A stretch of DNA of 25,943 nt from a virus (lineage: Duplodnaviria; Heunggongvirae; Uroviricota; Caudoviricetes), in IMG/VR virus record IMGVR_UViG_3300049596_000323, positions 64,001 through 89,943 of that record; one strand, written 5' to 3'. Both the position numbers and the translations under genes were made by a program. Below, in pieces: positions 575 to 16,949 of the stretch; the stretch's first letter is position 1, and every line of letters starts with the position of its first letter. Below the pieces are notes generated by a model that was not told the origin of the DNA, made no database searches, and saw only the letters and a program-made list of their open reading frames with translations.

Positions 575-943
575 TTAGTAAGGGTTGTATGATTTCTCCT
601 CTACAAACTCAGAGAAGTACTTGATATTAATTTCTTTTTTAATATGTGCTCTTTTATCATTCAATTTGTACACTGACCTAGCCAGATCAACAAATTCTGG
701 GCCAAAACTACCAGCTCTTTCAAAGTCTCTGAGCAAGTCTTCCACATCCCAAAGAGCTTTGTTTGTCTTAAGTAGATCATCTACTAGTGGATCGTGTAGA
801 ATTTCAGGGTCAATCACTGTATTTAAGTAGTTTTTCTCAACAAAAACGTTCTTAAGTTTGTCTTTGTCTGTAATGTTCAAAGCCTTGATGGAAAGGATGG
901 TCCATTTGTCCACAACTTCCCCAATACTTACTTCTATTTGCAT
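575..943 (-). CDS. DUF6165-family protein
   Basis: MQIEVSIGEVVDKWTILSIK...NKALWDVED...FVDLARSVYKLNDKRAHIKKEIN...EEKSY matches the characteristic DUF6165 pattern (GExxDKxTIL / LWxxED / LARxVYxxNDxR / EEKSY). Confidence 0.8.
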   Translation of the reverse strand: MQIEVSIGEVVDKWTILSIKALNITDKDKLKNVFVEKNYLNTVIDPEILHDPLVDDLLKTNKALWDVEDLLRDFERAGSFGPEFVDLARSVYKLNDKRAHIKKEINIKYFSEFVEEKSYNPY

Positions 944-949
944 AAAAAT

Positions 950-984
950 TTTGTTGTTTATTTACAACAAATATACTAATTTTG
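950..984. promoter_or_regulatory. Back-to-back divergent Bacteroidota-type promoters with an 8-bp inverted repeat
   Basis: Plus: TTG (954-956)-N20-TAATTTTG (977-984). Minus: TATATTTG (975-968), with no clear -33 at canonical spacing. Inverted repeat TTTGTTGT (950-957)/ACAACAAA (964-971). Confidence 0.55.
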
Positions 985-1002
985 TTCAAAATAACCAGCA
1001 TT

Positions 1003-4000
1003 ATGCCAAATAGTTATACTTTTTACAAACCTGAGATTAAGAAATACTTTGAACATCATGTTCCTACACATAAAAAGATATTAGATGTTGGTCCTGGACA
1101 GGGTACTTATGCTAAGCTTTTAGAAGATATTGGTTATGATATAGATGCTGTTGAAGCTTGGGCCCCTTACATTGAAGAATTCAAACTGAAAGATTGGTAC
1201 GGAACAGTACACAATGCAGACATCCGTGAGTTTGACTGGTCAGAATATGACTACATCATCCTAGGAGATATACTAGAACATCTTACAGCTGAAGAAGGTC
1301 AGAAGCTTATTACAGATATAACAGATGCAGGCAAAGAATGTTTAGTGGCTGTACCATATATGATGGCTCAAGATGGTGAAGAGTATGGTAATACATACGA
1401 AACCCATCTCCAGGAAGACCTAACTCACAGGGTAATGAAGACTAGATACCCCCAGCTAGTTGAACTTTACAGTAATCATTTGTATGGGTATTATACGAAT
1501 AAGCATATAAAAGCTGAAAAAGCGTACGTTTTATATGCAAATGCATCTTATGTTCCTACCGTTAAAGCTTGTGTAGCTTCTATAAGAAGATATAGCGAGC
1601 TTCCCATCTACGTATATTTATTAGATACTATTGCAGATATTCCTGGTGCTACAACAATTATGTGGAAGTCTAATCTACCAAAGCTTTCTATCAACAAATA
1701 CATTGATAGAAGTGATAAGAATGTTTATAGACTGTTGATAGAACGTCCAATGATTGTTAAAGATGCTCTATTAAACTGTGCTCATACAGTAGCTTATATA
1801 GACTCTGATAGTGTAGCCACAGAATATGTTGATAGCATCTTTGATATGTATCCTAAAATGAACTATCCCTATTTTGTAGAGGGTATTTATGACTATCTAC
1901 ACATCAATGGTAGAGGTGGGGCTGATACTAGAGAAGATATGTCTACAACATTAGAAGCACCAGCATGTGAATTGTTTGGTGTCAATCAATATGTTAGACA
2001 GAGATATAGACAAACAGGTTATTTTGTAGCCAACCATTACTGCTTTGATTTCTTAGATGAGTGGTACTGGATGTGTACTCATCCTAAAGTGATGGCTAAC
2101 CATGAGTGGTATGCTCCATACCATGAAGAAACAATAGCTAACGTGTTATTGTGGAAGTGGGGAGTGTTAGATGGCCTACCTTACATCTACACCAATGCTA
2201 GCCTAGATAGAATAGAAGACATCTACGATAAGCTTGAGTGGGGGAAGCACCACGGAAGCTGGTCAAGATTACCAGATAATAAACATAAGTTATTATTCTT
2301 ACATGGAGAGAAAGATCCAAAGGTGATGAATAAGATGATACAAACTCTAGAGAGTGCAGAGAAACAACTAAGTGTATTGTTCTTAGCTCCTCACTTATCT
2401 ACAGGTGGTATGCCTGGTTTCCTCCTAAAAAGAGTGCAAGAACTACAACATTTCGTACGAATTTATGTAGTGGAGTACTCTGACTTCAGTCCTGTGTATG
2501 TTGTACAGAAGAATGAAATCAAAAAGCTATTGCCTGAAAACAGGATGTTTACACTAGGAGAAAACAAGATGGAGCTCATTGACATCATCAAAAAGAATAG
2601 CATTGATGTTGTACATGTAGAAGAAATGTTAGAAGGGTTTGAGAGTTTTAATCAAATAAGCCCTCAGTTATTAGATGCATTGTATGCTCCTGATAGAACC
2701 TGGAGAATAGTTGAGACATGTCATAACGTTTGGTTTAATCCTGACGAACTTAAGAAGTATGAACCAGAAGCTTATGCTTTCTGTACACCATATCATTATA
2801 AGACATTTGCTAACATGAAGGCTTATAAAGATGTAATTGAATTCCCTATAGAAGATAAGAGACCAAGTATTGTACATAAAGTGGATGCTAAAGATGAGTT
2901 AGGATTTAATCTGAACAGACCTAATGTTGTAAACGTAGGACTGTGGACTCCAGGAAAGAATCAGAAAGAAGGAATAGAGATAGCTAGAAAATATCCTAGT
3001 ATGGACTTCCATTTTGTAGGTAATCAAGCCCCCAACTTTAAAGACTACTGGGAACCGTTGATGGAAAACTTACCAAAGAATGTAAAGATATGGGGAGAGA
3101 GAAATGATGTAGATATATTCTTAAAAGCTGCAGACATATTCATGTTTAACAGCACATGGGAATGTAATCCTCTTGTACTTAGAGAAGCGATCAGCTATGC
3201 ACTTCCTGTAGTAGCTAGAAATCTTCCTCAGTATGAAGATATGTTTACTAGATACATCCTACCTATAGATAGTGATTTAGATGAAGTGAATGAAAAATAT
3301 CCTGTTGGTGTTGTTTTTCATGACATACCAGATAACAGATTTGCACAAAATCATTTACACTTGTATAACAAAACACTTGATATACCCATTGTTCCTAGAA
3401 AAAAGAAGAAAACAAAGGTGAATATATCTTTGTTATTTGTAGAGAGTCCCACCTTAGAAATTACAGGAAACAGTGATAGTAACTTCTTAATCAAATTCTT
3501 TGATGAGAAAGGGGTTTGCCATTATGAAAATACAATTACTAGCAACCGTTGGGTTAAGTTAAATAGACAATGGTTTACCAAGTGGACAGCTATGGTATGG
3601 GAAGATGGAGAACTCATCTTTGAAGAAACGTTAAACTATGAAGGTAAGCGTGTATACATCTGTATAGATAGTCAATCATTAGGTGATACTATTGCCTGGA
3701 TACCGTATTGCAATGAATTCAGAAAGAAACACAACTGTCATGTTGTAGTGAGCACATATAAGAATTTCTTGTTTGAGAAAGCGTATCCAGAGCTTGAGTT
3801 TATCACTCCAGGAAGTGTAGTGGGTAATATTCATGGTCAGTACATTGTTGGCTGGAGATACGGTAAAGATAAAGAACCTGTGTTGTGTAACACTATTCCT
3901 TTACAGAAAGCAGCTACTAACATACTAGGATTAGAATGGAAAGAGATTAGACCTAGATTTGCTTATGAACCAGTTAAATTTAGTGGTAAAGATACATTTG

Positions 4001-4479
4001 TAACTATTGCTACAAACAGTACATCAGGATGTAAGTTCTGGACCAAGCAAGGTTGGCAGGCTTTGATTAACTATCTAGTTGATCATGGATACAAGGTGTA
4101 CAATGTATCTAAAGAAAAAAATCCATTTGATAACTGTACACAGATAGAAGATACTTCTATGGATAACACTATCAATATGATCTGGAATAGTAAGTTCTTT
4201 ATAGGATTAAGCTCAGGACTGAGCTGGTTAGCTTGGATGATGGGTAAGCAAACTGTAATGATTAGTAACTTTACAGAAGCAGATCATGAGTTTCAATCTA
4301 ATTGTTTAAGAATTACAGATACAAACTTATGTCATGGTTGTTGGAACAATCCTAACTTTAAGTTTGACAAAGGTGATTGGGATTGGTGTCCTGTACATAA
4401 AGGAACTGACAGACAATTTGAATGTCATAAAGGTATATCTGCAGAAACAGTAATTAATAAAATAAAACACTTACTATGA
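1003..4479 (+). CDS. Four-domain glycan-modifying enzyme: SAM methyltransferase + GT-A-like glycosyltransferase + GT4 (GT-B) + Aah/TibC-type autotransporter O-heptosyltransferase domain
   Basis: ILDVGPGQG and LGDILEHL (class I MTase, ~1003-1490); YIDSD DxD at 1801-1809; GT4 EX7E motif ECNPLVLRE at 3160-3186; SLGDTIAWIPY (Asp 3685-3687), GLSSGLSWLAW and CHGC...WCP...QFEC four-Cys motif (4330-4425) as in TibC/Aah. ATG at 1003 preferred over TTG at 982. Confidence 0.85.
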   Translation: MPNSYTFYKPEIKKYFEHHVPTHKKILDVGPGQGTYAKLLEDIGYDIDAVEAWAPYIEEFKLKDWYGTVHNADIREFDWSEYDYIILGDILEHLTAEEGQKLITDITDAGKECLVAVPYMMAQDGEEYGNTYETHLQEDLTHRVMKTRYPQLVELYSNHLYGYYTNKHIKAEKAYVLYANASYVPTVKACVASIRRYSELPIYVYLLDTIADIPGATTIMWKSNLPKLSINKYIDRSDKNVYRLLIERPMIVKDALLNCAHTVAYIDSDSVATEYVDSIFDMYPKMNYPYFVEGIYDYLHINGRGGADTREDMSTTLEAPACELFGVNQYVRQRYRQTGYFVANHYCFDFLDEWYWMCTHPKVMANHEWYAPYHEETIANVLLWKWGVLDGLPYIYTNASLDRIEDIYDKLEWGKHHGSWSRLPDNKHKLLFLHGEKDPKVMNKMIQTLESAEKQLSVLFLAPHLSTGGMPGFLLKRVQELQHFVRIYVVEYSDFSPVYVVQKNEIKKLLPENRMFTLGENKMELIDIIKKNSIDVVHVEEMLEGFESFNQISPQLLDALYAPDRTWRIVETCHNVWFNPDELKKYEPEAYAFCTPYHYKTFANMKAYKDVIEFPIEDKRPSIVHKVDAKDELGFNLNRPNVVNVGLWTPGKNQKEGIEIARKYPSMDFHFVGNQAPNFKDYWEPLMENLPKNVKIWGERNDVDIFLKAADIFMFNSTWECNPLVLREAISYALPVVARNLPQYEDMFTRYILPIDSDLDEVNEKYPVGVVFHDIPDNRFAQNHLHLYNKTLDIPIVPRKKKKTKVNISLLFVESPTLEITGNSDSNFLIKFFDEKGVCHYENTITSNRWVKLNRQWFTKWTAMVWEDGELIFEETLNYEGKRVYICIDSQSLGDTIAWIPYCNEFRKKHNCHVVVSTYKNFLFEKAYPELEFITPGSVVGNIHGQYIVGWRYGKDKEPVLCNTIPLQKAATNILGLEWKEIRPRFAYEPVKFSGKDTFVTIATNSTSGCKFWTKQGWQALINYLVDHGYKVYNVSKEKNPFDNCTQIEDTSMDNTINMIWNSKFFIGLSSGLSWLAWMMGKQTVMISNFTEADHEFQSNCLRITDTNLCHGCWNNPNFKFDKGDWDWCPVHKGTDRQFECHKGISAETVINKIKHLL

Positions 4480-4913
4480 TAATAGTATTATTTGGTCAAC
4501 CTGCATCAGGTAAAACAACCCTTGCTAAAAAATTTATAGCAGAGGGATTTCATCACATAGATGGTGATGAATTAAGAGATATGTTTAAGAATAAAGACTA
4601 CAGTAGAGAAGGTAGGATTAAGAACTTAAACAGAGCCAGTGATATAGCACACTATTTAAATAAAGCTAAAAACTATAACATAGTGTTATCACTAGTGTAT
4701 CCTTATGAAGAAGCTAGAGAACATCTTAATAAACTAACTAGAGATGTCAAATGGATATATCTCATCTATGAAGAAGATAGAGGTAGAGATGACTTTAAAG
4801 TGAAAGACTTTGAAGTTCCTCACATGGATAATGTAGATTTAATTATTAACACTTCTAACACTTCTATTGAAGACAGTTTAGATAAAATCAAGCGTATATG
4901 CAGAATATTTTAG
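4476..4913 (+). CDS. cysC: Adenylyl-sulfate (APS) kinase, compact form
   Basis: P-loop GQPASGKTT, IDGDELR, DYSREGRIKN, SLVYPY..AR, FEVP..VDLIINT..SIE: all CysC hallmarks. ATGA overlap with the upstream gene. Confidence 0.8.
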   Translation: MIIVLFGQPASGKTTLAKKFIAEGFHHIDGDELRDMFKNKDYSREGRIKNLNRASDIAHYLNKAKNYNIVLSLVYPYEEAREHLNKLTRDVKWIYLIYEEDRGRDDFKVKDFEVPHMDNVDLIINTSNTSIEDSLDKIKRICRIF

Positions 4914-5284
4914 CTGAGGGAAACCGTAAGACGGATGGGTATGCAATGTTCATAGGAAGATGGCAACCATGGCACGCTGGTCACAGATGGTTAATTGATC
5001 AACAATTGAACCAGGGAAAGAAGGTGTTGCTATGTGTAAGAGATGTTAAAGAGGATGAAAAGAATCCATGGTCTGCGTATCAAATCATGATGAACTTAGC
5101 AGAAGCATTAAATGATTTAATTGAAGAAGGTAAGGTGAGACTTATAATTATCCCTGATATTGAGTCTATAAACTTTGGAAGAGGGGTGGGTTATGATGTC
5201 GTTGAACATGTACCACCACAAGAGATACATGATATATCTGCTACACAAATTAGAGAACAAATGAAAAAAGAAGGTAAACTATGA
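4898..5284 (+). CDS. HIGH-motif (cytidylyltransferase-like) nucleotidyltransferase
   Basis: MFIGRWQPWHAGH (HxGH at 4973-4984) and C-terminal ISATQIR; start overlaps the cysC stop by 16 nt. Confidence 0.8.
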   Translation: MQNILAEGNRKTDGYAMFIGRWQPWHAGHRWLIDQQLNQGKKVLLCVRDVKEDEKNPWSAYQIMMNLAEALNDLIEEGKVRLIIIPDIESINFGRGVGYDVVEHVPPQEIHDISATQIREQMKKEGKL

Positions 5285-6147
5285 ATATAATATTTCAAAT
5301 TAATGGTGGTATAGGCAAGGTGATTGCCTCCACAGCTGTGTGTGCTTCAATAAAAACTAAGTACCCTGATTGTAAACTGATTGTTGTCTCTGGTTATCCA
5401 GATGTATTTTTAGGTAATCCTAATGTGGATAGAGCTTATGGCTTTGGTCAACAAGCTTATTTCTATAAGGAGTACATTGAGAATCAAGAGATTATATTGT
5501 TTGCACATGATCCTTATCTAGAAACAAAGCACATCAAACAAGAAGAACATCTTATTGAAACTTGGTGTAAGCTATATGACTTACCTGTAACTAAAACTGT
5601 TGGAGAATTATTTCTTACAAAAAGAGAAATAGATTTCTTTAGTAAGAAGTTCATATCTGATAAACCTATTTTGCTACTACAAACAAATGGTGGGACTGAA
5701 TCTGATGTTAAATACTCATGGGCTAGAGATATTCCTAGTTATGTGGTGGAGAATGTTATACATGAATTTAAAGAACAGTATAATATTGTTCACATAAGAA
5801 GAGAAGATCAAATAAATTATGAAGGTACATTTCCTGTAACTGATACATTCAGAGCACTTCTTGTACTTATAAGTATAAGTGATAAAAGATTAATGATGGA
5901 TAGCTTTGGTCAACATGCTGCAGCTGCTTTGAATAAACCATCCACTGTACTATGGGTTGTAAATGTTCCTAATGTATTTGGATATGATATTCATACAAAC
6001 ATTACAGCTAATCCAGAAACAAGTTCCTCTGAACTAAGAAACTCTTATTTGAACAAATATAATATATCAGGTGAGCTTATAGAGTTTCCTTACAATAATG
6101 AGTCTGAAATGTTTAATATAAACAATGTAATTAAATCTTTAAAATAA
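5281..6147 (+). CDS. GT9-like (GT-B fold) glycosyltransferase
   Basis: N-terminal IIFQINGGIGKVIAST..ASIKTKYPDCKLIV and C-terminal LMMDSFGQHAAAALNKPSTVLW resemble GT9 heptosyltransferase motifs (xGD...; IGxDSGxxHxAAAxxxPxxxLF). ATGA overlap. Confidence 0.65.
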   Translation: MNIIFQINGGIGKVIASTAVCASIKTKYPDCKLIVVSGYPDVFLGNPNVDRAYGFGQQAYFYKEYIENQEIILFAHDPYLETKHIKQEEHLIETWCKLYDLPVTKTVGELFLTKREIDFFSKKFISDKPILLLQTNGGTESDVKYSWARDIPSYVVENVIHEFKEQYNIVHIRREDQINYEGTFPVTDTFRALLVLISISDKRLMMDSFGQHAAAALNKPSTVLWVVNVPNVFGYDIHTNITANPETSSSELRNSYLNKYNISGELIEFPYNNESEMFNINNVIKSLK

Positions 6148-6968
6148 TGGAAAAAATATTCTATCAAAGTTCTTTACCTAGGTCAGGATCTACATTGTTA
6201 CAAAACATTCTTGCACAGAACCCTGATATATATGCTACACCTACGTCTGGTGTACTTGAATTAATATTTGGAGCACGTGCTAATTACACTAACTCTACTG
6301 AGTTTAAAGCTCAAGATGCTGAACTTATGAAAAAAGGATGGCAAGCATTTGCTAAATCTGGTATGGATGCTTTCTACAATGCTATTACAGATAAGAAATA
6401 TGTTATAGATAAAAGCAGAGGTTGGGGCATACACTATGATTTCTTACAGTTTGTACACAATGAAGAACCAAAAATCATTTGTATGGTGAGAGACTTACGT
6501 GATGTATTTGCATCTATGGAAGGTAACTTTAGAAAACATCCAGAGAAGCAATCTGATATTTTAGATTGGGCTAAAGGACAAGGAACCACTGTACCTAAGC
6601 GTATAGACATATGGGCATCACAACCTCCTGTAGGACTTGCTCTTGAAAGACTTAGTGAGATATTTAGAACAGGAATTAATAACAAAATGTTATTTGTAAA
6701 GTTTGAAGACTTATGTTTATATCCAGATACTACAATGATTAAGATATATGAATATCTAGGATTAACATATTATCAACATGACTTTGATCACATTGAGCAA
6801 GTAACTAAAGAAGATGATGAAGTGTACGGTGCATTTGGTGATCACGTTATTCGTACAAAACTTGAACCTGTAAGAAGTAAAGCCAAAGAGTTATTAGGTA
6901 AGGACGTAACAGATTGGATCTATACCAATTACAAATGGTTCTATGACACATTTAGATATAGTAAATAA
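6147..6968 (+). CDS. PAPS-dependent sulfotransferase (Sulfotransfer_3-like)
   Basis: 5'-PSB loop SLPRSGSTLLQNIL, IDKSRGW, 3'-PB motif MVRDLRDVFASM, VKFEDL..PDTTMIKIYEYLGL. TAATG overlap with the upstream gene. Confidence 0.85.
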   Translation: MEKIFYQSSLPRSGSTLLQNILAQNPDIYATPTSGVLELIFGARANYTNSTEFKAQDAELMKKGWQAFAKSGMDAFYNAITDKKYVIDKSRGWGIHYDFLQFVHNEEPKIICMVRDLRDVFASMEGNFRKHPEKQSDILDWAKGQGTTVPKRIDIWASQPPVGLALERLSEIFRTGINNKMLFVKFEDLCLYPDTTMIKIYEYLGLTYYQHDFDHIEQVTKEDDEVYGAFGDHVIRTKLEPVRSKAKELLGKDVTDWIYTNYKWFYDTFRYSK

Positions 6969-6974
6969 TAAAAC

Positions 6975-7005
6975 AAAAAAGCCCAGAATTAACTGGGCTT
7001 TTTTT
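6975..7005. terminator. Bidirectional rho-independent terminator
   Basis: AAAAAA-GCCCAG-AATTAA-CTGGGC-TTTTTTT between convergent genes (stops at 6968 and 7028). Confidence 0.9.
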
Positions 7006-7027
7006 ATTACTTCACCTTAAATTAATA

Positions 7028-7372
7028 TTACAATACATTAAGGTTATTGCTAACTTCTTTGAACTCCACTACAGATGTTCCTAATTTAGCTGCAACAATT
7101 TGAAACAACTCTTCATCGTTTGTACCCCAGTTAGCTACTTCTGCAGCAGTTAACACAAGTTGTGTACGTTGAGGAGCTCTCTGTAAATAATCTACATCAT
7201 TTACATTTTTGATGTTGCCATAAACAACTACAAACTCATGTTTTTCATTTCCTGGAATATAGTTTACACCAATCACTCCTAAGTGATCAAATGATGCAAC
7301 TGTTGCAGAACTGAATGGGTTCTCATCTTTTTCAGAGAAAGATGCACTTGGACTAATTTTAGCTACTAACAT
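7028..7372 (-). CDS. Hypothetical protein, probably tail-fibre associated
   Basis: Clean 114-aa ORF with A-rich leader, last gene of the minus-strand structural unit, directly after the S74-containing fibre; C-terminal WGTNDEELFQIVAAKLG. Function inferred from position only. Confidence 0.6.
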   Translation of the reverse strand: MLVAKISPSASFSEKDENPFSSATVASFDHLGVIGVNYIPGNEKHEFVVVYGNIKNVNDVDYLQRAPQRTQLVLTAAEVANWGTNDEELFQIVAAKLGTSVVEFKEVSNNLNVL

Positions 7373-7401
7373 AACTTTATTTTTTATTTTTGTTTTTTAA
7401 A

Positions 7402-10400
7402 TTATTTATTTCTTAATTCTTCTAACTGTAAAGTTAATGAATCTACACAAGATATCAAAATTTGCACACCCTTGGTTAAAATAGGTATTAGTTTTGATGA
7501 ATCAAATGAGTAGTATCCACTAAAGGTCATTTTTACTGATTCAGGTACTACGTCTTTAACTTGTTGAGCAATGAATCCTACTTGTTTTCCTTCTCCATTA
7601 GCTTTATTAGCACTATTGAATTCATAGAATGAAGGAACTAATTTGCTAACATCACAAAGCTGATATCCAACAGGTTGAATGCAACACTTTAATCTAGCAT
7701 CAGATGTATTTAAAACAATCATTCCAGTAGCATTTGCACAAATTGCACCTCCTGGATTTAAATTAGCAGCCTTGAAACAACTAGCATGATTTACAAATGA
7801 GTCTGTTGACATTATCTGACATCCACTTACAACACTTCCTATTCCCATACTCATGTTGAAACAACCACCAGTAACAGCAGAAGCTGCAGCCATTGCGTTG
7901 TTAGATTGTCCAGCAAGAATACCACTCATTTCTGAACTTACATAGTTTTGATATCCAGCAAGAATACCTGACTTCATACTACTACTAAACATATTACCTC
8001 CAGCTATAGTATTGTTACTACCACCTCCAATGAAACCCCAACCACCATAATTACAATTGGTTTGTCCACCTCCAATGAAACCATAACTAGGGAAGCTAGC
8101 ATAATATGCACTGCTAGTCGTGTTACCAGAACCTCCTACAATAACTGAACAATTACCACCTGCATTATTCATAGTACCTCCTATAATAGCAGAACTACAT
8201 GCACTAGCCATATTCATTTCACCACCACCAACAAAAGAACGGCAGCTCATAGCGTTATTATAAAAACCACTAGCAACTGCAGCACCTTCAGCAAATGCTC
8301 CATTGGATCGTCCACCACCAATAAAGGTAAAGTAAGCTGAAGCACTGTTAGAATATCCACCACTAACTGTTGAATAATCTCCATTTGCATTATTAAGCTT
8401 TCCACCACCAATAGTAGAAAACCCTGAACTTCCTGAAGCTCCAATAGTATTACAACATCCTCCACCTATTGTTCCATAACTAACGCACACTTTATTATTA
8501 ACACCACCACCAATTGTCATCCCAATATTATTAAAAGGATAACTACTAGCCGTAAAATTATTAAATCCACCTCCAATAAATGAACAAGCTGCACTATTGT
8601 TATTTGCTTCACCACCAGCAATTACTGACGAACTTCCACCTGCATTGTTAAAGAAACCACTTAACGCTCCAGAGTTAGTACCTCCTGTCGTGTTAAAGTT
8701 ACCACATCTTTCTGTAGAACCAGCTCCCATTCCTAGTACCATAATGCTTGATCCACCACCACCACCAGCAGTTAAACATAATTTACCAAAGCCATCAAAG
8801 CTTATACTACAACCCATTCCAACGTATGGAGCAAATGAAGTGATTGCTAAATCATTAACCATGTGTGTACATGCTAATGAATTCATTAAACCACATCCAG
8901 ATACAGTTGAATAGTTTGCAGTAGCAAAATTACCCTGTCCTCCAGTTATAGTTGCACCAGTTACATATCCACTAATAGTATTCATGCTTCCTCCAGATAT
9001 AGTACCACTAGTACCATTACTGCCAATGTTATTCATAAATCCTCCAGATATAACATTGTTACCTGAGTAATTACCAATATTATGAAAAGTACCACCAGCA
9101 ATTACACCATGTGTTGAACCTGTTCCAATCATGTTGATATCACCGCCTCCAATTACATTACAGCTGGCATAACTACTAACAGTGTTAGACTTACCACCAG
9201 CAATTAAATTACCAGCAGAATTAGTACAAATAATATTACATGCACCACCACTAATTGTAGAACAGTTTGTACTTGATAATATTTTGTTAAATACACCACC
9301 AGATATTGTTGAACTAGATGAACAAACACAGTTGTTATTACCACCACTAATAACTGAACAGCTTGCAGAAATTACATTGTTAAAGAAACCTCCTCCAATG
9401 AATGAATACATTCCAGAGTTACTGTTGAATCCACCACCAGTAATAACTGATCCGTTGCTAGAACTAGCATTGGTAGTACCACTTAAAGCACTAGAACAAT
9501 ATCCACTTGCTGTGTTAGAAAATCCATTACCTTGAATTGAACCAGGAGCACTACCAGCAACCATTACACCACCTCCACTTGAAGCAGTGTAAGCAATAAG
9601 CTCACCCAAAGGTCCTGCACATACAGCACATCCACCTATCATTGCATTACTTAAATTAGGTTGTACAAAGCAGTTAGCCATGAATGAACATGATAAACTG
9701 TTTGATAAACCACATCCAAATACACCAGAATATGCTCCCATTGCAGTATTACCACAACCTCCTAATACTGCTGAAAATGATCCATTAGCAGAGTTATTTT
9801 GACCACCAACTACCACACCAGATGTTCCATTAGCTCCATTAAAAGTTCCACTTCCAACAAATGAACATTGTCCAGCAGCACTATTACCAAAACCATTTCC
9901 TATAAAAGCATAATCTCCACTTGCAGTGTTAGATGCTCCATTTACAACTGTATTATATTGTGTACCTGAGGCTACGTTATTTAATCCATTACCTATAAAA
10001 TTATAATTTGCATTAGTACAGTTACCTTGTCCATTAACAATAGTTCCATGGAAGTTACCTGAAGCATGGTTTTGACAACCACCACCAATAAATGAATATG
10101 CAAAATCACCTGTGTTACCAGCACCACCTAATACAGAACTACAATTTCCTGAAGCAGTGTTTGAAGCACCACATCTAACAGATGAAGCAGTCCCTGTACC
10201 AGCAATAATAACAGCACTAGAACCAACATTCACACCACTAGATCCAGAAGATCCAGATGTACCATTAGTTCCAGGAGCTCCTGGAGATCCTGCAGCTCCT
10301 GATGTACCACTAGTACCAGTTGTACCAGCAGTTCCAGATGTACCATTAATACCACTTGATCCACTTGTTCCAGAGGTACCAGTAGTACCGCTTGTGCCAG

Positions 10401-13400
10401 TGGTACCTGATGTACCATTAATACCTGATGTACCAGCAGTGCCAGAAGAACCGCTAGTTCCTGTAGTTCCAGAAGTACCATTTGATCCATTAACACCAGA
10501 AGTGCCAGAGGTACCAGTTGTACCTGATGTACCGTTTATTCCACTAGTTCCACTTGTTCCTGTTGTGCCAGATGTACCGTTTATACCAGATGTGCCTGAG
10601 GTTCCAGTTGTTCCAGAAGTTCCTCCTGTACCATTAGTTCCAGATGTACCACCTGTACCATTAGTACCTGAAGAGCCTGAAGAGCCTGATGTTCCAGTAG
10701 TACCTGAAGTACCGCCAGTTCCATTAGTAGCTGAAGTTCCTGAAGTTGCTGACGTACCACTAGTTCCATTACTACCACTAACACCAGAAGATCCTGATGT
10801 TCCTGTGGTACCTGATGTACCACTTGTTGCACTAGTTCCACTAGTACCTGTTGTACCACTGGTTCCAGTTGTGCCACTTGTTCCACTTGTACCACCAGTT
10901 CCATTAGTACCACTAGAACCTGAAGTTCCACTTGTACCAGAGGTACCTCCAGTTCCATTAGTTCCTGAACTTCCTGATGTACCAGTGGTACCAGAAGTTG
11001 CAGATGAACCAGATGTACCAGAAGAGCCAGATGTACCTGTTGTACCAGAGCTTCCACTTGTACCAGTTGAACCTGAAGTACCAGTGGTACCGCTTGTTCC
11101 TGATGTACCAGAAGTTCCTGAAGATCCATCAGTTCCACTTGTTCCAGTGGTACCTGATGTTCCTGAAGGAGCATTGAATGTTGTTTGAGCGTATGAGTAG
11201 TTACTCGTACCCTCTGTATAAAAAGTTATATTATGATTAGCACCACCACCAGTAAATTCAACATAAATTTGACAATAAAGTCTATCTGTTGCATTTAATG
11301 TGGTTTGTGGCAAAAATAAATCTGTAAAAAATTCTTTAATAACACCATTGCTCATTGATTCTGTATCAATGTTTGTAGTTCCTAAAAGAGTAGAAACACC
11401 ACCAGTTGTATACTTGTATAATTCTACATCTACTGCAACATTTCTATTTGTATCAATTGAAAGGTGTGTTACGAAAGCCCAAAGACCTGAAGGTATATTT
11501 GTTATATTTGGTACACCACTATCAGTTGCAAAAGTTGCAATTAATGTTCTTGTGTCTGCCGCTATATTTGTAACTACAGTTTGTTCTGCACCACCTGTAG
11601 CAGTTGATGAAAATTGTTTATAAGTAGGAGTACCAAAAGCCGTATTTGTATTTAATGATTGATTTAGATAGTATACAAGTCCTCCAGATATACCATTTAT
11701 ACCTGATGTACCAGCCGTACCTGAAGTACCACTTGTTCCACTTGTTCCGCTAGATCCACTAGTTCCTGTTGTACCAGACGTACCACTAGTTCCTGTAGAA
11801 CCACTTGTACCAGTTGTTCCACTTGTACCTGAGCTTCCTGAAGTTCCAGTTGTACCGCTAGATCCTGATGTACCACTAGTTCCACCAGTTCCATTAGTTC
11901 CACTAGAACCACTTGTTCCTGTTGTACCTGAAGTGCCACCAGTTCCATTAGTTCCACTAGATCCAGAACTACCACTTGTACCAGATGATCCACTTGTACC
12001 AGTAGTTCCACTAGAGCCTGAAGTACCTGTAGATCCACTAGTTCCACTAGTTCCACCAGTACCATTAGTACCGCTAGTTCCACTAGTACCACTTGTACCA
12101 GTTGTTCCACTAGTACCACTTGTGCCATCAATAGCACTTGTACCAGAAGTTCCACTTGTACCTGAGGTACCACTTGTTCCGTCTACACCAGATGTTCCAC
12201 TTGTGCCAGACGTACCTGTTGACCCACTAGTACCACTAGTACCAGTTGTGCCAGAAGTTCCGTTAGTACCATCTATACCAGTTGTACCTGAGGTACCTGA
12301 AGTACCACCACTACCTGACGTACCAGTGGTACCAGATGTTCCACTTGTTCCATCTATTGCAGAAGTTCCTGAGGTACCAGTAGTACCAGCAGTTCCTGAA
12401 GAGCCGCTTGTTCCACTAGTTCCAGATGTACCTGTTGAACCAGATGTTCCACTAGTTGCAGAAGAACCTGAGGTTCCACTTGTTCCTGTAGTTCCACTAG
12501 ATCCACTTGTACCATCAATTCCTGATGTGCCACTTGTTCCACTTGATCCACTAGTACCACCTGTACCATTGGTAGCAGATGTTCCACTTGAACCAGATGT
12601 ACCGCTTGTACCTGTTGTGCCACTAGTTCCTGAGGTTCCAGTTGTACCAGATGTTCCATCAATAGCTGATGTTCCACTTGTACCAGCTGTTCCACTAGTT
12701 CCAGTTGTGCCACTTGTACCGCTAGTTCCATCAATTGCAGATGTACCACTAGAACCACTTGTTCCAGTCGTGCCACTTGTACCACTGGTTCCTGTTGTTC
12801 CAGCAGTTCCAGAAGAACCACTAGTCCCAGAAGATCCTGAAGTTCCAGTAGTGCCAGATGTTCCAGAAGAACCATCTCCTCCAGAAGCACCGTCTAAGTT
12901 AACTATCCAGCTTGTATATGTACCACTACCAACTGTTCTAGTTGGAGTGCCAAAAATTAATCCACCAGTAGCTGGGTTATAAGATACCACTTCACATTCT
13001 TGGAAGTTGTTTATATCATAAGCTATTACAATAGATTGAGCTACTGTATATGCAAGTTGTGTTCCTACAACAATGGCTCCATTACTACCTAATGTAAACG
13101 ATGTAGTAGAAGTTGTTGCAAATTGGTCACCTGTTTCTCCAGAAGTACCTGATGAACCAGATGTACCATTACTACCATCAGCACCACTGGTTCCACTAGT
13201 TCCACTAGTTCCAGATGTGCCATCTATTGCTGATGTTCCAGATGAGCCTGAAGACCCACTAGTTCCTGAAGTACCGTCTGTTGCACTTGTTCCACTTGAA
13301 CCTGATGTTCCACTTGTACCAGATGTACCTCCACTACCACCAGCACCATCAATACCTGAACTACCACTAGTTCCAGATGTACCAGCAGTACCTGACGTGC

Positions 13401-13647
13401 CTGAAGTACCTGCACTTCCAGATGTACCATCTTCACCAGCAGAACCAGAGGCAATTACTTCCCAAAGGTTGTAACTACCACTACCTACAGCTTTAGTTGG
13501 TGTAAAAACCAACTCTCCTGTAGCAGGATTGTAAGAAACAACCTGACCAAAAATATAGTCAGTACTATCTGCTATTAGCTGGATAAATTGTCCAGTGATA
13601 AAAGATAGACCTGTTTGAGTGGTTATTGTTATGTTAGAATAAGCCAT
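7402..13647 (-). CDS. Giant trimeric tail/virion fibre: G-T-S triplet stalks, internal beta modules, Cys-rich beta-roll head, C-terminal Peptidase_S74 intramolecular chaperone
   Basis: Three Gly-X-Y blocks; ~14-15-aa repeats of type NxASGxYSxIGGGxxN (YadA-head-like); TSDARLK...GFIAQQVKDVVPESV...KLIPILTKGVQIL is the S74 chaperone signature. Confidence 0.85.
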   Translation of the reverse strand: MAYSNITITTQTGLSFITGQFIQLIADSTDYIFGQVVSYNPATGELVFTPTKAVGSGSYNLWEVIASGSAGEDGTSGSAGTSGTSGTAGTSGTSGSSGIDGAGGSGGTSGTSGTSGSSGTSATDGTSGTSGSSGSSGTSAIDGTSGTSGTSGTSGADGSNGTSGSSGTSGETGDQFATTSTTSFTLGSNGAIVVGTQLAYTVAQSIVIAYDINNFQECEVVSYNPATGGLIFGTPTRTVGSGTYTSWIVNLDGASGGDGSSGTSGTTGTSGSSGTSGSSGTAGTTGTSGTSGTTGTSGSSGTSAIDGTSGTSGTTGTSGTAGTSGTSAIDGTSGTTGTSGTSGTTGTSGTSGSSGTSATNGTGGTSGSSGTSGTSGIDGTSGSSGTTGTSGTSGSSATSGTSGSTGTSGTSGTSGSSGTAGTTGTSGTSAIDGTSGTSGTTGTSGSGGTSGTSGTTGIDGTNGTSGTTGTSGTSGSTGTSGTSGTSGVDGTSGTSGTSGTSGTSAIDGTSGTSGTTGTSGTSGTSGTNGTGGTSGTSGSTGTSGSSGTTGTSGSSGTSGSSGSSGTNGTGGTSGTTGTSGSSGTNGTGGTSGTSGSSGTTGTSGSSGTSGTTGTSGSTGTSGTSGTTGTSGSSGTSGTSGTSGTAGTSGINGISGGLVYYLNQSLNTNTAFGTPTYKQFSSTATGGAEQTVVTNIAADTRTLIATFATDSGVPNITNIPSGLWAFVTHLSIDTNRNVAVDVELYKYTTGGVSTLLGTTNIDTESMSNGVIKEFFTDLFLPQTTLNATDRLYCQIYVEFTGGGANHNITFYTEGTSNYSYAQTTFNAPSGTSGTTGTSGTDGSSGTSGTSGTSGTTGTSGSTGTSGSSGTTGTSGSSGTSGSSATSGTTGTSGSSGTNGTGGTSGTSGTSGSSGTNGTGGTSGTSGTTGTSGTTGTSGTSATSGTSGTTGTSGSSGVSGSNGTSGTSATSGTSATNGTGGTSGTTGTSGSSGSSGTNGTGGTSGTNGTGGTSGTTGTSGTSGINGTSGTTGTSGTSGINGTSGTTGTSGTSGVNGSNGTSGTTGTSGSSGTAGTSGINGTSGTTGTSGTTGTSGTSGSSGINGTSGTAGTTGTSGTSGAAGSPGAPGTNGTSGSSGSSGVNVGSSAVIIAGTGTASSVRCGASNTASGNCSSVLGGAGNTGDFAYSFIGGGCQNHASGNFHGTIVNGQGNCTNANYNFIGNGLNNVASGTQYNTVVNGASNTASGDYAFIGNGFGNSAAGQCSFVGSGTFNGANGTSGVVVGGQNNSANGSFSAVLGGCGNTAMGAYSGVFGCGLSNSLSCSFMANCFVQPNLSNAMIGGCAVCAGPLGELIAYTASSGGGVMVAGSAPGSIQGNGFSNTASGYCSSALSGTTNASSSNGSVITGGGFNSNSGMYSFIGGGFFNNVISASCSVISGGNNNCVCSSSSTISGGVFNKILSSTNCSTISGGACNIICTNSAGNLIAGGKSNTVSSYASCNVIGGGDINMIGTGSTHGVIAGGTFHNIGNYSGNNVISGGFMNNIGSNGTSGTISGGSMNTISGYVTGATITGGQGNFATANYSTVSGCGLMNSLACTHMVNDLAITSFAPYVGMGCSISFDGFGKLCLTAGGGGGSSIMVLGMGAGSTERCGNFNTTGGTNSGALSGFFNNAGGSSSVIAGGEANNNSAACSFIGGGFNNFTASSYPFNNIGMTIGGGVNNKVCVSYGTIGGGCCNTIGASGSSGFSTIGGGKLNNANGDYSTVSGGYSNSASAYFTFIGGGRSNGAFAEGAAVASGFYNNAMSCRSFVGGGEMNMASACSSAIIGGTMNNAGGNCSVIVGGSGNTTSSAYYASFPSYGFIGGGQTNCNYGGWGFIGGGSNNTIAGGNMFSSSMKSGILAGYQNYVSSEMSGILAGQSNNAMAAASAVTGGCFNMSMGIGSVVSGCQIMSTDSFVNHASCFKAANLNPGGAICANATGMIVLNTSDARLKCCIQPVGYQLCDVSKLVPSFYEFNSANKANGEGKQVGFIAQQVKDVVPESVKMTFSGYYSFDSSKLIPILTKGVQILISCVDSLTLQLEELRNK
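10235..11170 (-). repeat. Gly-X-Y (mainly GTS/GTT/GSS/GTN) coding repeat, block 3 of fibre 1 (boundaries approximate)
   Basis: 9-nt periodic degenerate repeat; Gly (occasionally Ala) at every third residue. Confidence 0.9.
11690..12890 (-). repeat. Gly-X-Y coding repeat, block 2 of fibre 1 (~400 aa, boundaries approximate)
   Basis: Register [18 protein letters not shown] ... AID GTS is held throughout the part I checked. Confidence 0.9.
13135..13440 (-). repeat. Gly-X-Y coding repeat, block 1 of fibre 1 (boundaries approximate)
   Basis: GTS triplets between the two N-terminal beta modules. Confidence 0.9.
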
Positions 13648-13673: not shown

Positions 13674-16600
13674 TTAACAAGGTACACAACTACCTGCTTG
13701 AGTTAACAATGTTGAACCACCACCTGCAGAAGTAAATGGTCTAGTATTGGTTCCATCAGAAACATAATAGGTTCCTGCACTCAATGATGTAGCATTAGCT
13801 GCATTTAAAGCACCACATCCACAAAGAGTTGCTGTACCTGTGTATGCATATGTTGGAAGGCTAGTAGCTGTACCTGCACAAGCCATTGAACTAATAGAAT
13901 CTACATATAATGTTGGAGAACTTGGAGTTGTACATGAACCACTCACTTGAACTAATCCATATATGTTTACAGCATACCAATTAGTTCCATCAGAATAATA
14001 TCCTGAACTAACTGAATTTGTAAGTGCTGTATCATAATATAAAAATGTGACAGTTGCTGTAATAGTAGTACCAAATTCATAATAAATTGGAACTAATAAT
14101 GAAGGATTATCTGCATTACCACATGCTACAATAGGCCCTACATTACTTGGATAACTAGGATCAGCAAACGCTAAATTTATAGTATTATAGACAGGTGCTG
14201 TTGTAGTTGTTGTTGTTGTAGTTATACAACTTTCTATACTTGTTATTATACCAGATTCAGCAATTCCAAATGGATCACCATCAAGACCTATATAATATGT
14301 GCCTGGAGGATTTGAAAATGTAAAAGGATCTGTTAAATATTGATCATCATACAATTGTGTTCCTACTTGAATAGGTAATGATTCTACATATAATGGAGCA
14401 AGAATACCACCACTACAAGGACTAAAAGGACCAAAAAGACTTGGGCTAACACCACTAGCCGTAACTTCAATACCATTTTGATTTAAAGGAAAAGATATTG
14501 TATTAGAACTTGTACCATATAATAATGTAGAGCTACCAGAGGTTCCTGACGTTCCACTGGTACCAGAAGTACCACTAGTTCCACTTGTGCCACTAGTGCC
14601 TGATGTACCTGAGGTTCCACTAGTACCATCTATTGCACTTGTTCCAGATGTGCCAGATGAACCAGCTGTACCACTTGAGCCTGATGTACCGTCTATACCA
14701 GACGTTCCTGTTGTTCCAGAAGACCCACTAGTACCTGATGTTCCGTCTACACCTGTAGTTCCAGATGTTCCATCAGTTCCACTTGTACCTGATGTGCCAG
14801 TAGTTCCTGAAGAACCAGAAGTTCCTGAGGTGCCACTAGTTGCTGAGGTACCACTTGTTCCTGTTGTACCACTAGTACCAGATGAACCTGAAGTGCCAGA
14901 AGTTCCGTCAATTCCAGATGTTCCATCTGTACCACTTGTACCATCAGTACCACTAGTTCCGTCAACTCCACTTGTTCCTGAAGTTCCATCTATGCCAGAA
15001 GTACCGTCAGTACCAGATGTTCCATCAGTACCTGATGTTCCGTCTGTACCAGAAGTACCACTTGAACCAGAAGTTCCTGAAGTGCCATCAATACCACTAG
15101 AGCCTGATGTACCACTTGTGCCTGAAGTACCAGTGCTTCCACTTGTACCACTTGTTCCGTTTGTACCATCAATGCCAGAAGTTCCAGAAGTTCCACTAGA
15201 ACCACTAGTTCCAGTTGTTCCACTAGATCCTGATGTACCGCTTGTTCCAGAAGTTCCAGTTGTACCTGATGAGCCATCATTACCAGAAGTACCAGATGTG
15301 CCTGTAGTTCCAGAAGTGCCAGAAGTGCCATCTATTCCAGATGTACCACTTGTACCTGAGCTACCATCACCACCTGATGCACCATCAAGGTTTACTATCC
15401 AACTTGTATATGTGCCTGAACCCACTGTTCTAAAAGGGGCACCAAAACTTAATTCACCTGTTGATGGATTATAAGCTGTAACCTCACACTCTTGGAAGTT
15501 ATTAGCGTCATAAACCACAATTATTGATTGAGCCACTGAGTATGCTAAACCTGTAGCAACTGTTAATGTACCAGAGTTACCTAATGTAAAGCTATCAGTA
15601 GATGTAGTTCTATATTTATCACCTTGTGCTCCAGAAGTACCACTTGTACCACTGGTGCCATCTATTCCAGATGACCCTGAAGTTCCTGCAGATCCTGATG
15701 TTCCATGGCTACCGTCTGTACCACTTGTTCCACTAGTTCCAGAAGTACCAGTAGTACCACTAGATCCTGATTCACCACTAGTACCACTTGTTCCAGTAGT
15801 TCCAGAAGTTCCGTTACTACCATCACTTCCTGAGGTTCCTGAACTACCACTTGTGCCTGTAGTACCACTAGTACCACTTGTTCCATCAACTCCAGAAGAC
15901 CCACTAGTTCCAGAAGATCCACTTGTTGCAGATGTACCGCTTGTACCATGTGTTCCACTGGTTCCAGATGTACCAGTCGTACCTGAAGTTCCTGATTCAC
16001 CACTAGTTCCACTAGTACCGTCAGACCCTGATGTACCAGATGTTCCATCAACACCACTTGTTCCAGTGGTACCAGATGATCCAGATGTACCTGTTGTTCC
16101 TGAAGTACCGCTTGTACCTGTAGATCCACTTGTACCTGATGTACCACTTGTTGCAGATGTTCCAGACGTACCACTTGTTCCATCTACTCCACTTGTACCA
16201 GAGGTACCATCTTCACCTGAAGATCCACTTGTTCCAGCAGTTCCACTAGTTGCAGAAGTTCCACTAGTTCCATCTACACCTGAAGTGCCACTGGTTCCTG
16301 TAGTGCCTGATGTTCCTGATGTACCATCTATACCTGAAGTACCACTGGTTCCAGAGGTTCCACTAGTTGCAGATGAACCACTAGTTCCACTTGTACCATC
16401 AGTTCCACTTGTACCATCAATACCAGATGTGCCTGAGCTTCCAGCAGTTCCTGAAGAACCTGCTGATCCATTTACACCATTTGTTCCATTAATACCTGAC
16501 GTACCAGAGGTACCACGTGTTCCTGATGTACCACTAGTACCTGTAGTTCCACTTGTTCCAGTTGTTCCACTTGATCCTGAGACACCAGAAGTACCAGAAG

Positions 16601-16949
16601 TACCACGTGTACCAGACGTACCATCTACACCACTTGTACCTGAAGTACCAGTTAAACCACTAGTACCTGATGTACCACGTGTTCCTGAGGTTCCAGAAAC
16701 CCCACTTGTACCAGAGGTTCCATTGATACCATTTGTACCATCAATACCAGAGGTTCCACTAGTACCTGAAGTACCAGCTGAACCACTACCACCTCCTCCA
16801 TTACCAATAGCTTCATCAATTTTTTGTAAAGCTGTCTGAATGGAATCATTAGTGTTGATACCTGTATAAACAAGATTAGCACCCTCGTAAAATACGCAGG
16901 TGCTGTTAAGTATGACTGGGCAAGGAGTTGCAGAACATGTAACGTTCAT
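13674..16949 (-). CDS. Second G-T-S triplet fibre protein with Cys-containing N-terminal anchor and three Cys-bracketed C-terminal modules
   Basis: N-term [19 protein letters not shown]...[12 protein letters not shown]; two Gly-X-Y blocks split by a module shared with fibre 1; C-terminal modules joined by TTTTTTT and TTPSSP linkers. Confidence 0.8.
14530..15375 (-). repeat. Gly-X-Y coding repeat, block B of fibre 2 (boundaries approximate)
   Basis: GTS/GTD/GID triplets, 9-nt degenerate periodicity. Confidence 0.9.
15620..16800 (-). repeat. Gly-X-Y coding repeat, block A of fibre 2 (boundaries approximate)
   Basis: GTS triplets with interspersed GTR, GES, GVD, GTH. Confidence 0.9.

Follow-up and report, generated by a model that had tools for sequence, protein, structure and literature searches.

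A phage cassette with an overlapping kinase–nucleotidyltransferase pair

This work concerns two overlapping genes in a 25,943-nucleotide stretch of Caudoviricetes DNA (hereafter the window; positions 64,001–89,943 of the IMG/VR record IMGVR_UViG_3300049596_000323). One encodes an apparent adenosine 5′-phosphosulfate (APS) kinase and the other a small nucleotidyltransferase (NTase) of the HIGH superfamily, considered here as a candidate ATP sulfurylase. The whole phage record comprises 89.9 kb, with an estimated completeness of ~78% and a GC content of 34.7%. Because its large terminase is similar to the corresponding proteins of crAss-like Cellulophaga, Flavobacterium and Bacteroides phages, the host is probably a marine member of the Bacteroidota. 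Five plus-strand open reading frames (ORFs), whose ends touch or overlap, form one translationally coupled cassette (982–6968), which is closed by a hairpin lying between the convergent cassette and fibre genes:

982–4479, plus strand: first cassette gene, 1165 aa, a methyltransferase and family 1 glycosyltransferase (GT1) with a weak GT9-like C-terminal fusion
4476–4913, plus strand: putative cut-down APS kinase (CysC-like), 145 aa, assigned from Pfam PF01583, PDB matches and alignment
4898–5284, plus strand: HIGH-motif NTase, candidate minimal ATP sulfurylase, 128 aa, assigned from motifs, profiles and an AlphaFold2 model
5281–6147, plus strand: GT9-like (heptosyltransferase-like) protein, 288 aa, assigned from weak NCBIfam matches and phrog_8954
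6147–6968, plus strand: sulfotransferase, 273 aa, presumed consumer of 3′-phosphoadenosine 5′-phosphosulfate (PAPS), assigned from Pfam PF13469/PF00685 and PHROG
6975–7004, no strand assigned: bidirectional intrinsic-terminator-like hairpin with a 12-bp stem and T-runs on both sides

The stop of the first gene overlaps the kinase start (ATGA), the kinase and NTase ORFs overlap by 16 nt (4898–4913), and the NTase stop overlaps the start of the following gene. The pair is co-transcribed with the sulfotransferase in the window. A preliminary description of this DNA had noted an HxGH nucleotidyltransferase with a C-terminal ISATQIR overlapping the cysC stop, and the absence of CysD and full-length Sat; both observations were borne out. 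No PF01507 (CysD/CysH) match was detected in the whole record, where PF01747 (Sat) matches the NTase and nothing else (9.5 bits, E 0.026). The same description suggested that the pair may be a two-gene PAPS synthase.

Pfam analysis of the kinase ORF returned APS_kinase (PF01583) at 8.6e-10 (39.3 bits against a cut-off of 21.1; profile positions 4–105 of 152), and equivalog-level APS kinase models (TIGR00455, PRK) gave 35–44 bits, below their cut-offs of 127–244. Its best PDB relatives are APS kinases, namely 2yvu (1.6e-6), then 8a8h, 2gks and the PAPSS1 kinase domain. Sequence alignment joined the protein via intermediate forms to canonical APS kinases and indicated that it retains the P-loop, the DGDxLR motif, the R47/N50 Arg/Asn pair and the S-x-V-x-P-Y motif, with Gly7, Gly12, Lys13, Thr15, Asp29, Arg34, Arg47, Asn50, Pro76, Arg81 and Arg102 invariant; S-P-Y of the canonical enzymes is Y-P-Y in the window kinase. 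We read the 145-aa product as a putative cut-down APS kinase. Structure prediction of the kinase–NTase complex gave a score of 0.00, which returns no verdict and was not used either way.

The sulfotransferase matches Sulfotransfer_3 (PF13469; 5.2e-17, 63.3 bits against a cut-off of 27), Sulfotransfer_1 (PF00685; 5.9e-12, 46 bits against 22) and phrog_27463 (9e-43), as well as the NoeE model at 1.9e-9, under its cut-off. Its LPRSGSTLL and VRDLRDVFAS segments resemble the 5′-phosphosulfate-binding (5′-PSB) and 3′-phosphate-binding (3′-PB) motifs that bind PAPS. A PDB sequence search with this protein found no relative at E ≤ 0.01.

Motifs, fold and ancestry of the small nucleotidyltransferase

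The NTase carries the motifs GRWQPWHAGH (HxGH at residues 26–29), VRD...DEKNP, PDIESINFGRGVGY and ISATQIR (residues 113–119). Homologues of 128–132 aa share the N-terminal extension that begins with the ATG at 4898, and this start is therefore supported. Near-length homologues numbered 6148 at E ≤ 1e-3, mostly from marine metagenomes, and exhaustive searching yielded 1098 cluster representatives at 50% identity. Because homologues are this numerous and the same overlapping pair occurs on other phage contigs, the kinase and NTase are not a chance ORF pair. Alignment of 40 diverse members gave the consensus motifs F-I-G-R-W-Q-P-F-H-x-G-H, V-R-D...D-E-K-N-P, I-P-D-I-E-S-V-N-Y-G-R-x-V-G-Y and I-S-A-T-x-I-R. 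Gly20, His26, Gly94 and Arg119 are invariant, and Arg21, His29, Arg48, Asp87 and Arg95 are at least 90% conserved; the superfamily residues His26, His29, Ser114, Thr116 and Arg119 all fall into one of these two grades. Arg48 and Gly94–Arg95 are near-invariant and particular to the NTase family.

The nearest solved relatives of the family by both profile and fold are archaeal NadM-type NMN adenylyltransferases (NMNATs; NMN, nicotinamide mononucleotide), represented by M. jannaschii MJ0541 (1f9a) and the M. thermautotrophicum enzyme (1ej2, 1m8g). A profile built from the 40-member alignment placed NadM first among PDB entries (1f9a, E 1.6e-12), aligning to residues 4–76 and 110–138 only. About 33 residues of NadM (1f9a 77–109) and its C-terminal 30 residues are without counterpart in the NTase family; the lost central segment contributes to the nicotinamide pocket of NadM. 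The AlphaFold model of the NTase is confident, with a predicted local distance difference test (pLDDT) score of 89.9. VIA-align superposed this model on 1f9a with Z 10.7 and a root-mean-square deviation of 2.9 over 110 residues, on the phosphopantetheine adenylyltransferase (PPAT) 4nah with Z 10.4, on NadR with Z 8.7–8.8, on the Thermus thermophilus ATP sulfurylase 1v47 with Z 8.0 and on HldC (5x9q) with Z 5.8, clearly under the values for NadM, PPAT and Sat; HldC, TagD and CCT all score below NadM. Foldseek gave a template modelling (TM) score of 0.67 for NadM 1m8g. These comparisons reveal the common HIGH fold, which does not tell the substrate.

NadM and the NTase share the GRxQPxHxGH, NP(F/W)T and S-x-T-x-x-R motifs, in keeping with the remark in the preliminary description that GRxQPxH is NadM-like. 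They differ in that the NTase is ~40–50 residues shorter (128 aa against 168–181 aa), carries R-D where NadM carries G-S, and is tied to APS kinase, CysH and sulfotransferase, whereas NadM is tied to NAD genes. Sat (PF01747; T. thermophilus 1v47, yeast 1j70) likewise has the HIGH superfamily fold, H-x-x-H and a late I-S-x-T-x-x-R, is frequently fused to APS kinase and catalyzes the reaction proposed here for the NTase, whose G-R in the intervening loop recalls the Sat GRD loop. Compared with Sat, the NTase has a catalytic domain of half the size, no PUA-like N-domain and GRWQP instead of QxRNP. Its PF01747 score is 13.6 bits (E 0.045; cut-off 24.3), and hhalign of the family against ten Sat catalytic domains taken from genomes gave a probability of 32%, covering 60 columns around HxxH with the GR loop unaligned. 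The idea that the NTase is a truncated Sat was rejected, as the hhalign match covers only the generic HxxH region. The HxxH and late ISGTxxR motifs on which the earlier suggestion drew are present; they are common to the whole superfamily and not specific for Sat, and kinship with Sat was not upheld. On this sequence evidence, the family is best taken as a truncated offshoot of NadM-like enzymes and not as a shrunken Sat, and ATP sulfurylase activity would therefore be an independent recruitment.

The NadM kinship raises the alternative that the NTase is an NMN or nicotinic acid mononucleotide (NaMN) adenylyltransferase acting with a nucleoside/ribosylnicotinamide-type kinase, a NadR-like salvage pair serving phage NAD. 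The profile and fold results above are what this explanation would predict. Moreover, the best NCBIfam matches of the NTase are NMNAT models, many homologues are called "NMN adenylyltransferase" by JGI (other automatic names are "cytidylyltransferase-like" and, for protein atlas clusters, "hypothetical"), and the fused form in Xylella phage Sano adjoins a NADAR-domain gene. Every NMNAT model, however, lies far under its cut-off (NF002243, 37 bits against 127; TIGR01527, 32.5 bits against 181) and aligns to residues 16–92 only. In Pfam, the NTase gives a weak CTP_transf_like match. The missing NadM segment and C-terminus also speak against salvage, as do the partner, which is an APS kinase (to E 1e-69, full length) and not a nicotinamide riboside kinase, and the absence of NAD genes nearby in the window and the inspected loci. 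We regard NAD salvage as quite improbable.

The flanking genes suggest a further alternative, in which the pair, following the logic of HldE/HldC, supplies the GT9-like glycosyltransferases of the cassette with an ADP- or NDP-activated sugar. GT9 enzymes normally use ADP-heptose, two GT9-like domains flank the pair, and the NTase roughly equals HldC- and TagD-type enzymes, which are HIGH NTases too, in length. The kinase, on the other hand, is a P-loop relative of APS kinase and not a PfkB sugar kinase, the NTase family is tied to APS kinase, CysH and sulfite reductase (Sir) also where GT9 genes are absent, and the structural scores of HldC, TagD and CCT fall below that of NadM. The GT9 assignments are themselves weak. 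In the first cassette gene, Glyco_transf_9 matches at 3.9e-4, below its cut-off, next to Methyltransf_23 (3.9e-6) and Glycos_transf_1 (1.1e-12). For the gene at 5281–6147, a Pfam scan found no match, NCBIfam gave weak N-terminal RfaQ/heptosyltransferase III matches (E 0.003–0.008), and phrog_8954, which matches at 5.3e-10, carries no assigned function. An activated sugar as the product seems improbable to us. In terms of genomic context, the NMNAT and ADP-heptose synthase alternatives, both raised in the preliminary description, appear to fit worse than a PAPS synthase.

APS kinase partners and gaps in sulfate activation

Among the longer NTase homologues that were scanned, nine of ten carry an APS_kinase domain (PF01583), N- or C-terminal to the NTase, with matches reaching 9.5e-69 and several full-length at 1e-50 to 1e-69. 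With each GTDB species represented by one genome, a scan returned at least 572 NTase relatives. In the best 80 bacterial and archaeal loci, the NTase is fused to APS kinase in 42 (27 kinase–NTase, 15 NTase–kinase), lies next to a same-strand APS kinase in 16 and stands alone in 22, the last mostly in genomes labelled Dadabacteria or Thermodesulfobacteriota. The linkage to cysC that the preliminary description proposed to look for was thus found, and linkage to sulfotransferases is seen in the window cassette, on a phage contig and at an Acidobacteriota locus.

On marine T4-like phage contigs, a 147-aa kinase gene overlaps a 128-aa NTase gene, and the pair is followed by a DUF2061 gene; one of the contigs (L003) has a sulfotransferase two genes upstream of the kinase and holds the same trio as the window. 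PHROG 10255 (230 positions, "kinase") spans both window proteins, and a fused phage form is therefore indicated. In a phage collection that may lack close relatives, blastn with the cassette gave one 125-base match, and tblastn recovered only distant fused forms (Xylella, Xanthomonas and Stenotrophomonas phages) and true NadM–Nudix genes. The DUF2061 gene lies within two genes after the pair or fusion on three contigs (L003, 8587–8814; L005, 8384–8599; L010, 11034–11261). No DUF2061 gene is present in the window, and our literature search found no informative paper linking DUF2061 to sulfate activation.

In cellular genomes, an Acidobacteriota metagenome-assembled genome (MAG) places NTase–APS kinase between cysD–cysN and an ABC exporter with two sulfotransferase–glycosyltransferase fusions. 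A Nitrospiraceae MAG locus (L019) has the order Rrf2, sulfite reductase (NIR_SIR + TusA), PAPS_reduct (CysH) and stand-alone NTase. At this locus (6647–12266) the sulfite reductase has extra HEPN and TusA domains, and the NTase is followed by a Glycos_transf_3 (TrpD/thymidine-phosphorylase-like) gene and a DUF420 membrane protein.

A nucleotidyltransferase coupled to such a kinase could also produce a PAPS-like 3′-phosphorylated donor by activating an anion other than sulfate. Cj1415 of Campylobacter is an APS kinase homologue. The Campylobacter proteins Cj1415–Cj1418 make CDP-phosphoramidate 3′-phosphate for capsule modification, a precedent for a pathway ending in a 3′-phosphorylated donor (PMC11800397). 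That system resembles the window pair in combining a nucleotidyltransferase and a kinase to supply such a donor for glycan decoration (PMC11800397), and differs in its nucleotide and transferred group and in having no sulfotransferase. The divergence of the window kinase, its shortened lid and the methyltransferase domains in the cassette could be accommodated in the same way. Against a different anion stand the PF13469/PF00685 sulfotransferase with PAPS-type motifs in the operon, the many fusion partners that are canonical APS kinases, and the position of the NTase with CysH and Sir and in place of Sat or CysD in genomes with sulfate assimilation genes. We consider such a donor very improbable.

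Two enzyme types, Sat and CysDN, are known to initiate sulfate assimilation and sulfation. Three complete chromosomes (G002–G004) each encode the NTase, one 200-aa APS kinase and one 240-aa PAPS_reduct (CysH), and contain no PF01747 match and no CysD. Their CysH gene adjoins a PHO4/PiT-family permease, a member of the family of B. subtilis CysP. In 120 genomes of one phylum, the NTase occurs in 78, Sat in 18 and CysD in 15, with no overlaps, and APS kinase is present in 74 of the 78 NTase genomes. The phylum argument rests on the hole itself, because uptake-like, kinase and reductase genes occur without a known activating enzyme. A clade of ~1-Mb genomes (G107 and G109–G122, in the phylum of G003) has CysD and no APS kinase at E ≤ 1e-30, and may use APS directly.

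The Flavobacteriales form a second lineage, in which the pattern is patchier. In a sample of 151 Flavobacteriales genomes, CysD was found in none of the five NTase genomes and in 101 of the 146 others (hypergeometric p = 0.0035), and the five contain no Sat above cut-off. The NTase is also present with neither Sat nor CysD in a 4.0-Mb Acetobacteraceae chromosome, a 5.7-Mb Planctomycetota MAG, a Marinimicrobia single amplified genome (SAG), a Methanosarcinales MAG and a Pyrinomonadaceae MAG. The NTase occurs in 2 of 151 sampled Planctomycetota genomes, a number too small to test complementarity. A NadD match was detected in five NTase genomes, four of them above cut-off, and CoaD in five; the NTase family therefore does not serve as the cell's NMNAT/NaMNAT or PPAT. 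NAD salvage is disfavored by this presence of NadD and gives no account of the Sat/CysD complementarity.

Proposed reaction and its implications

Taken together, these data lead us to regard the overlapping pair as probably a split, miniaturised PAPS synthase, with the 128-aa NTase as its candidate ATP sulfurylase. The earlier suggestion of a two-gene PAPS synthase gains support from the APS kinase fusions in both orders, the Sir–CysH–NTase operon and the pathway holes, and formation of APS and pyrophosphate (PPi) from ATP and sulfate by the NTase is supported only indirectly, by fusions, operons and holes. A little more guardedly, we favour the wider proposal that this NadM-derived family of ~110–130 residues is a third, independently evolved and smallest known class of ATP sulfurylase. 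Dadabacteria-type bacteria, along with scattered lineages among the Flavobacteriales, Marinimicrobia, Planctomycetota, Acidobacteriota and archaea, would have it as their sole sulfate-activating enzyme, and marine phages would spread it as one half of a portable PAPS synthase feeding phage sulfotransferases.

Based on these findings, we propose a plausible route from sulfate to a sulfated glycan. In HIGH nucleotidyltransferases, an oxyanion attacks the α-phosphate of a nucleoside triphosphate and pyrophosphate is released; ATP sulfurylase performs the same chemistry with sulfate. First, the NTase would adenylylate sulfate (ATP + sulfate → APS + PPi), binding ATP via HxGH and ISxTxxR as other HIGH-family nucleotidyltransferases do. 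Sulfate may be held in the space vacated by the lost NadM segment, perhaps via Arg48 and Gly94–Arg95. The 145-aa kinase would then phosphorylate the 3′-OH of APS to yield PAPS. The equilibrium of ATP sulfurylase lies far towards ATP, so the reaction proceeds only if APS or PPi is taken away; the near-obligatory kinase partner could pull this unfavourable step forward. Finally, the sulfotransferase two genes downstream would spend PAPS on sulfating a glycan built by the glycosyltransferases of the cassette. The target may be a host surface polysaccharide or, given the very long Gly-Thr-Ser collagen-like fibres encoded next to the cassette, virion glycans on the phage's own Ser/Thr-rich fibres.

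Several observations weigh against sulfate activation by the NTase. By both profile and fold the NTase is closer to NadM than to Sat, hhalign gave the low Sat probability reported above, and the pair is flanked by GT9-like domains. The lid of the window kinase has lost about 14 residues. In the phylum of 120 genomes, the NTase, Sat and CysD classes probably follow clades, so the count is a weak statistic. Six NTase genomes also hold canonical Sat or CysD: G001 encodes a Sat–APS kinase fusion elsewhere in the genome, CysDN directly adjoins NTase–APS kinase in G005, CysD occurs alongside the NTase in G124 and G431, and two alphaproteobacterial isolates (G428 and G429) have CysD-like genes below the model cut-off. 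In Xylella and Stenotrophomonas phages, the fused form lies among early genes by a NADAR-domain gene, and gp33 of phage Sano reaches Sulfotransfer_4 at a sub-threshold E of 4e-4 (20.7 bits against 22.8). In these phage fusions and the alphaproteobacterial ones, the kinase half is far more diverged (E 1e-6 to 1e-11), and both branches may use another substrate. In phage Sano (L001, 4588–6357), gp33 and the NADAR-domain protein gp34 (6e-26) precede the fused kinase–NTase gp35. Double systems for assimilation and sulfation are known, such as NodPQ beside CysDN, and co-occurrence with Sat or CysD therefore weakens and does not refute a sulfurylase function.

Such co-occurrence could also mean that the NTase has a non-catalytic or regulatory role beside APS kinase and that APS comes from the host; fungal ATP sulfurylase, with its APS-kinase-like allosteric domain, offers a mirror image of this arrangement. 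Genomes that also hold CysDN or Sat, in one case directly adjacent, are compatible with this idea, and CysD is found in most Flavobacteriales, the likely host group. Conservation argues otherwise: the 40 diverse members show little or no variation in the catalytic HxGH and ISxTxxR residues and in several arginines, and stand-alone copies are kept in 78 genomes without Sat or CysD. A non-catalytic role is highly improbable, the least favoured of the alternatives. No rival explains the Sat/CysD pattern together with the Sir–CysH operon.

As a putative sulfurylase, the NTase would share the reaction and pathway place of CysDN, and the two are mutually exclusive in most genomes tested; CysDN is a GTP-driven heterodimer of a PAPS-reductase-like ATP pyrophosphatase and an EF-Tu-like GTPase, with a fold unrelated to the NTase. 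A functional parallel is offered by bifunctional PAPS synthases (human PAPSS1/2, 1x6v; Aquifex Sat–CysC, 2gks), which likewise combine a HIGH NTase with a P-loop APS kinase and, like the NTase family, occur in both domain orders. They use a full Sat domain, whereas the window pair consists of miniaturised halves on separate overlapping genes.

A literature search on novel or alternative ATP sulfurylases and phage sulfate activation found neither a paper on the NTase family nor an assay of it. The reaction and the superfamily are already known; the family, its size and its NadM-like origin would be new. In metabolic models built from genomes, an organism that lacks both Sat and CysDN is called unable to use sulfate. 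If the proposal is true, many such calls are wrong, for example in 78 of the 120 genomes of one phylum and in several marine lineages, and the database names "cytidyltransferase-like" and "NMN adenylyltransferase" need correcting. Phages would then possess every step of a portable route from sulfate to sulfated glycan, a function uncounted in viral sulfur gene surveys, and enzymatic PAPS regeneration would gain a useful minimal component in an ATP sulfurylase of 110 residues.

Around the cassette, a sigma-70 promoter scan found fewer sites than in shuffled sequences, as expected for a Bacteroidota-type phage. A DUF6165 protein of 122 aa (575–943, minus strand; Pfam 1e-9) is encoded divergently from the cassette start. 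Directly after the cassette lie two minus-strand genes for giant fibre proteins (7402–13647, 2081 aa; 13674–16949, 1091 aa), which consist largely of Gly-Thr-Ser collagen triple-helix repeats (Pfam Collagen, ~1e-87) and offer many potential sites for O-glycosylation. The 2081-aa protein has a Peptidase_S74 intramolecular chaperone domain at its end. Two further minus-strand ORFs (17090–22189, 1699 aa; 22191–25820, 1209 aa) have no Pfam match. Outside the window, at G000:C1:56157-57722, are four tandem small paralogous genes (100–165 aa), whose products all start with MATVKK or MATAKK.

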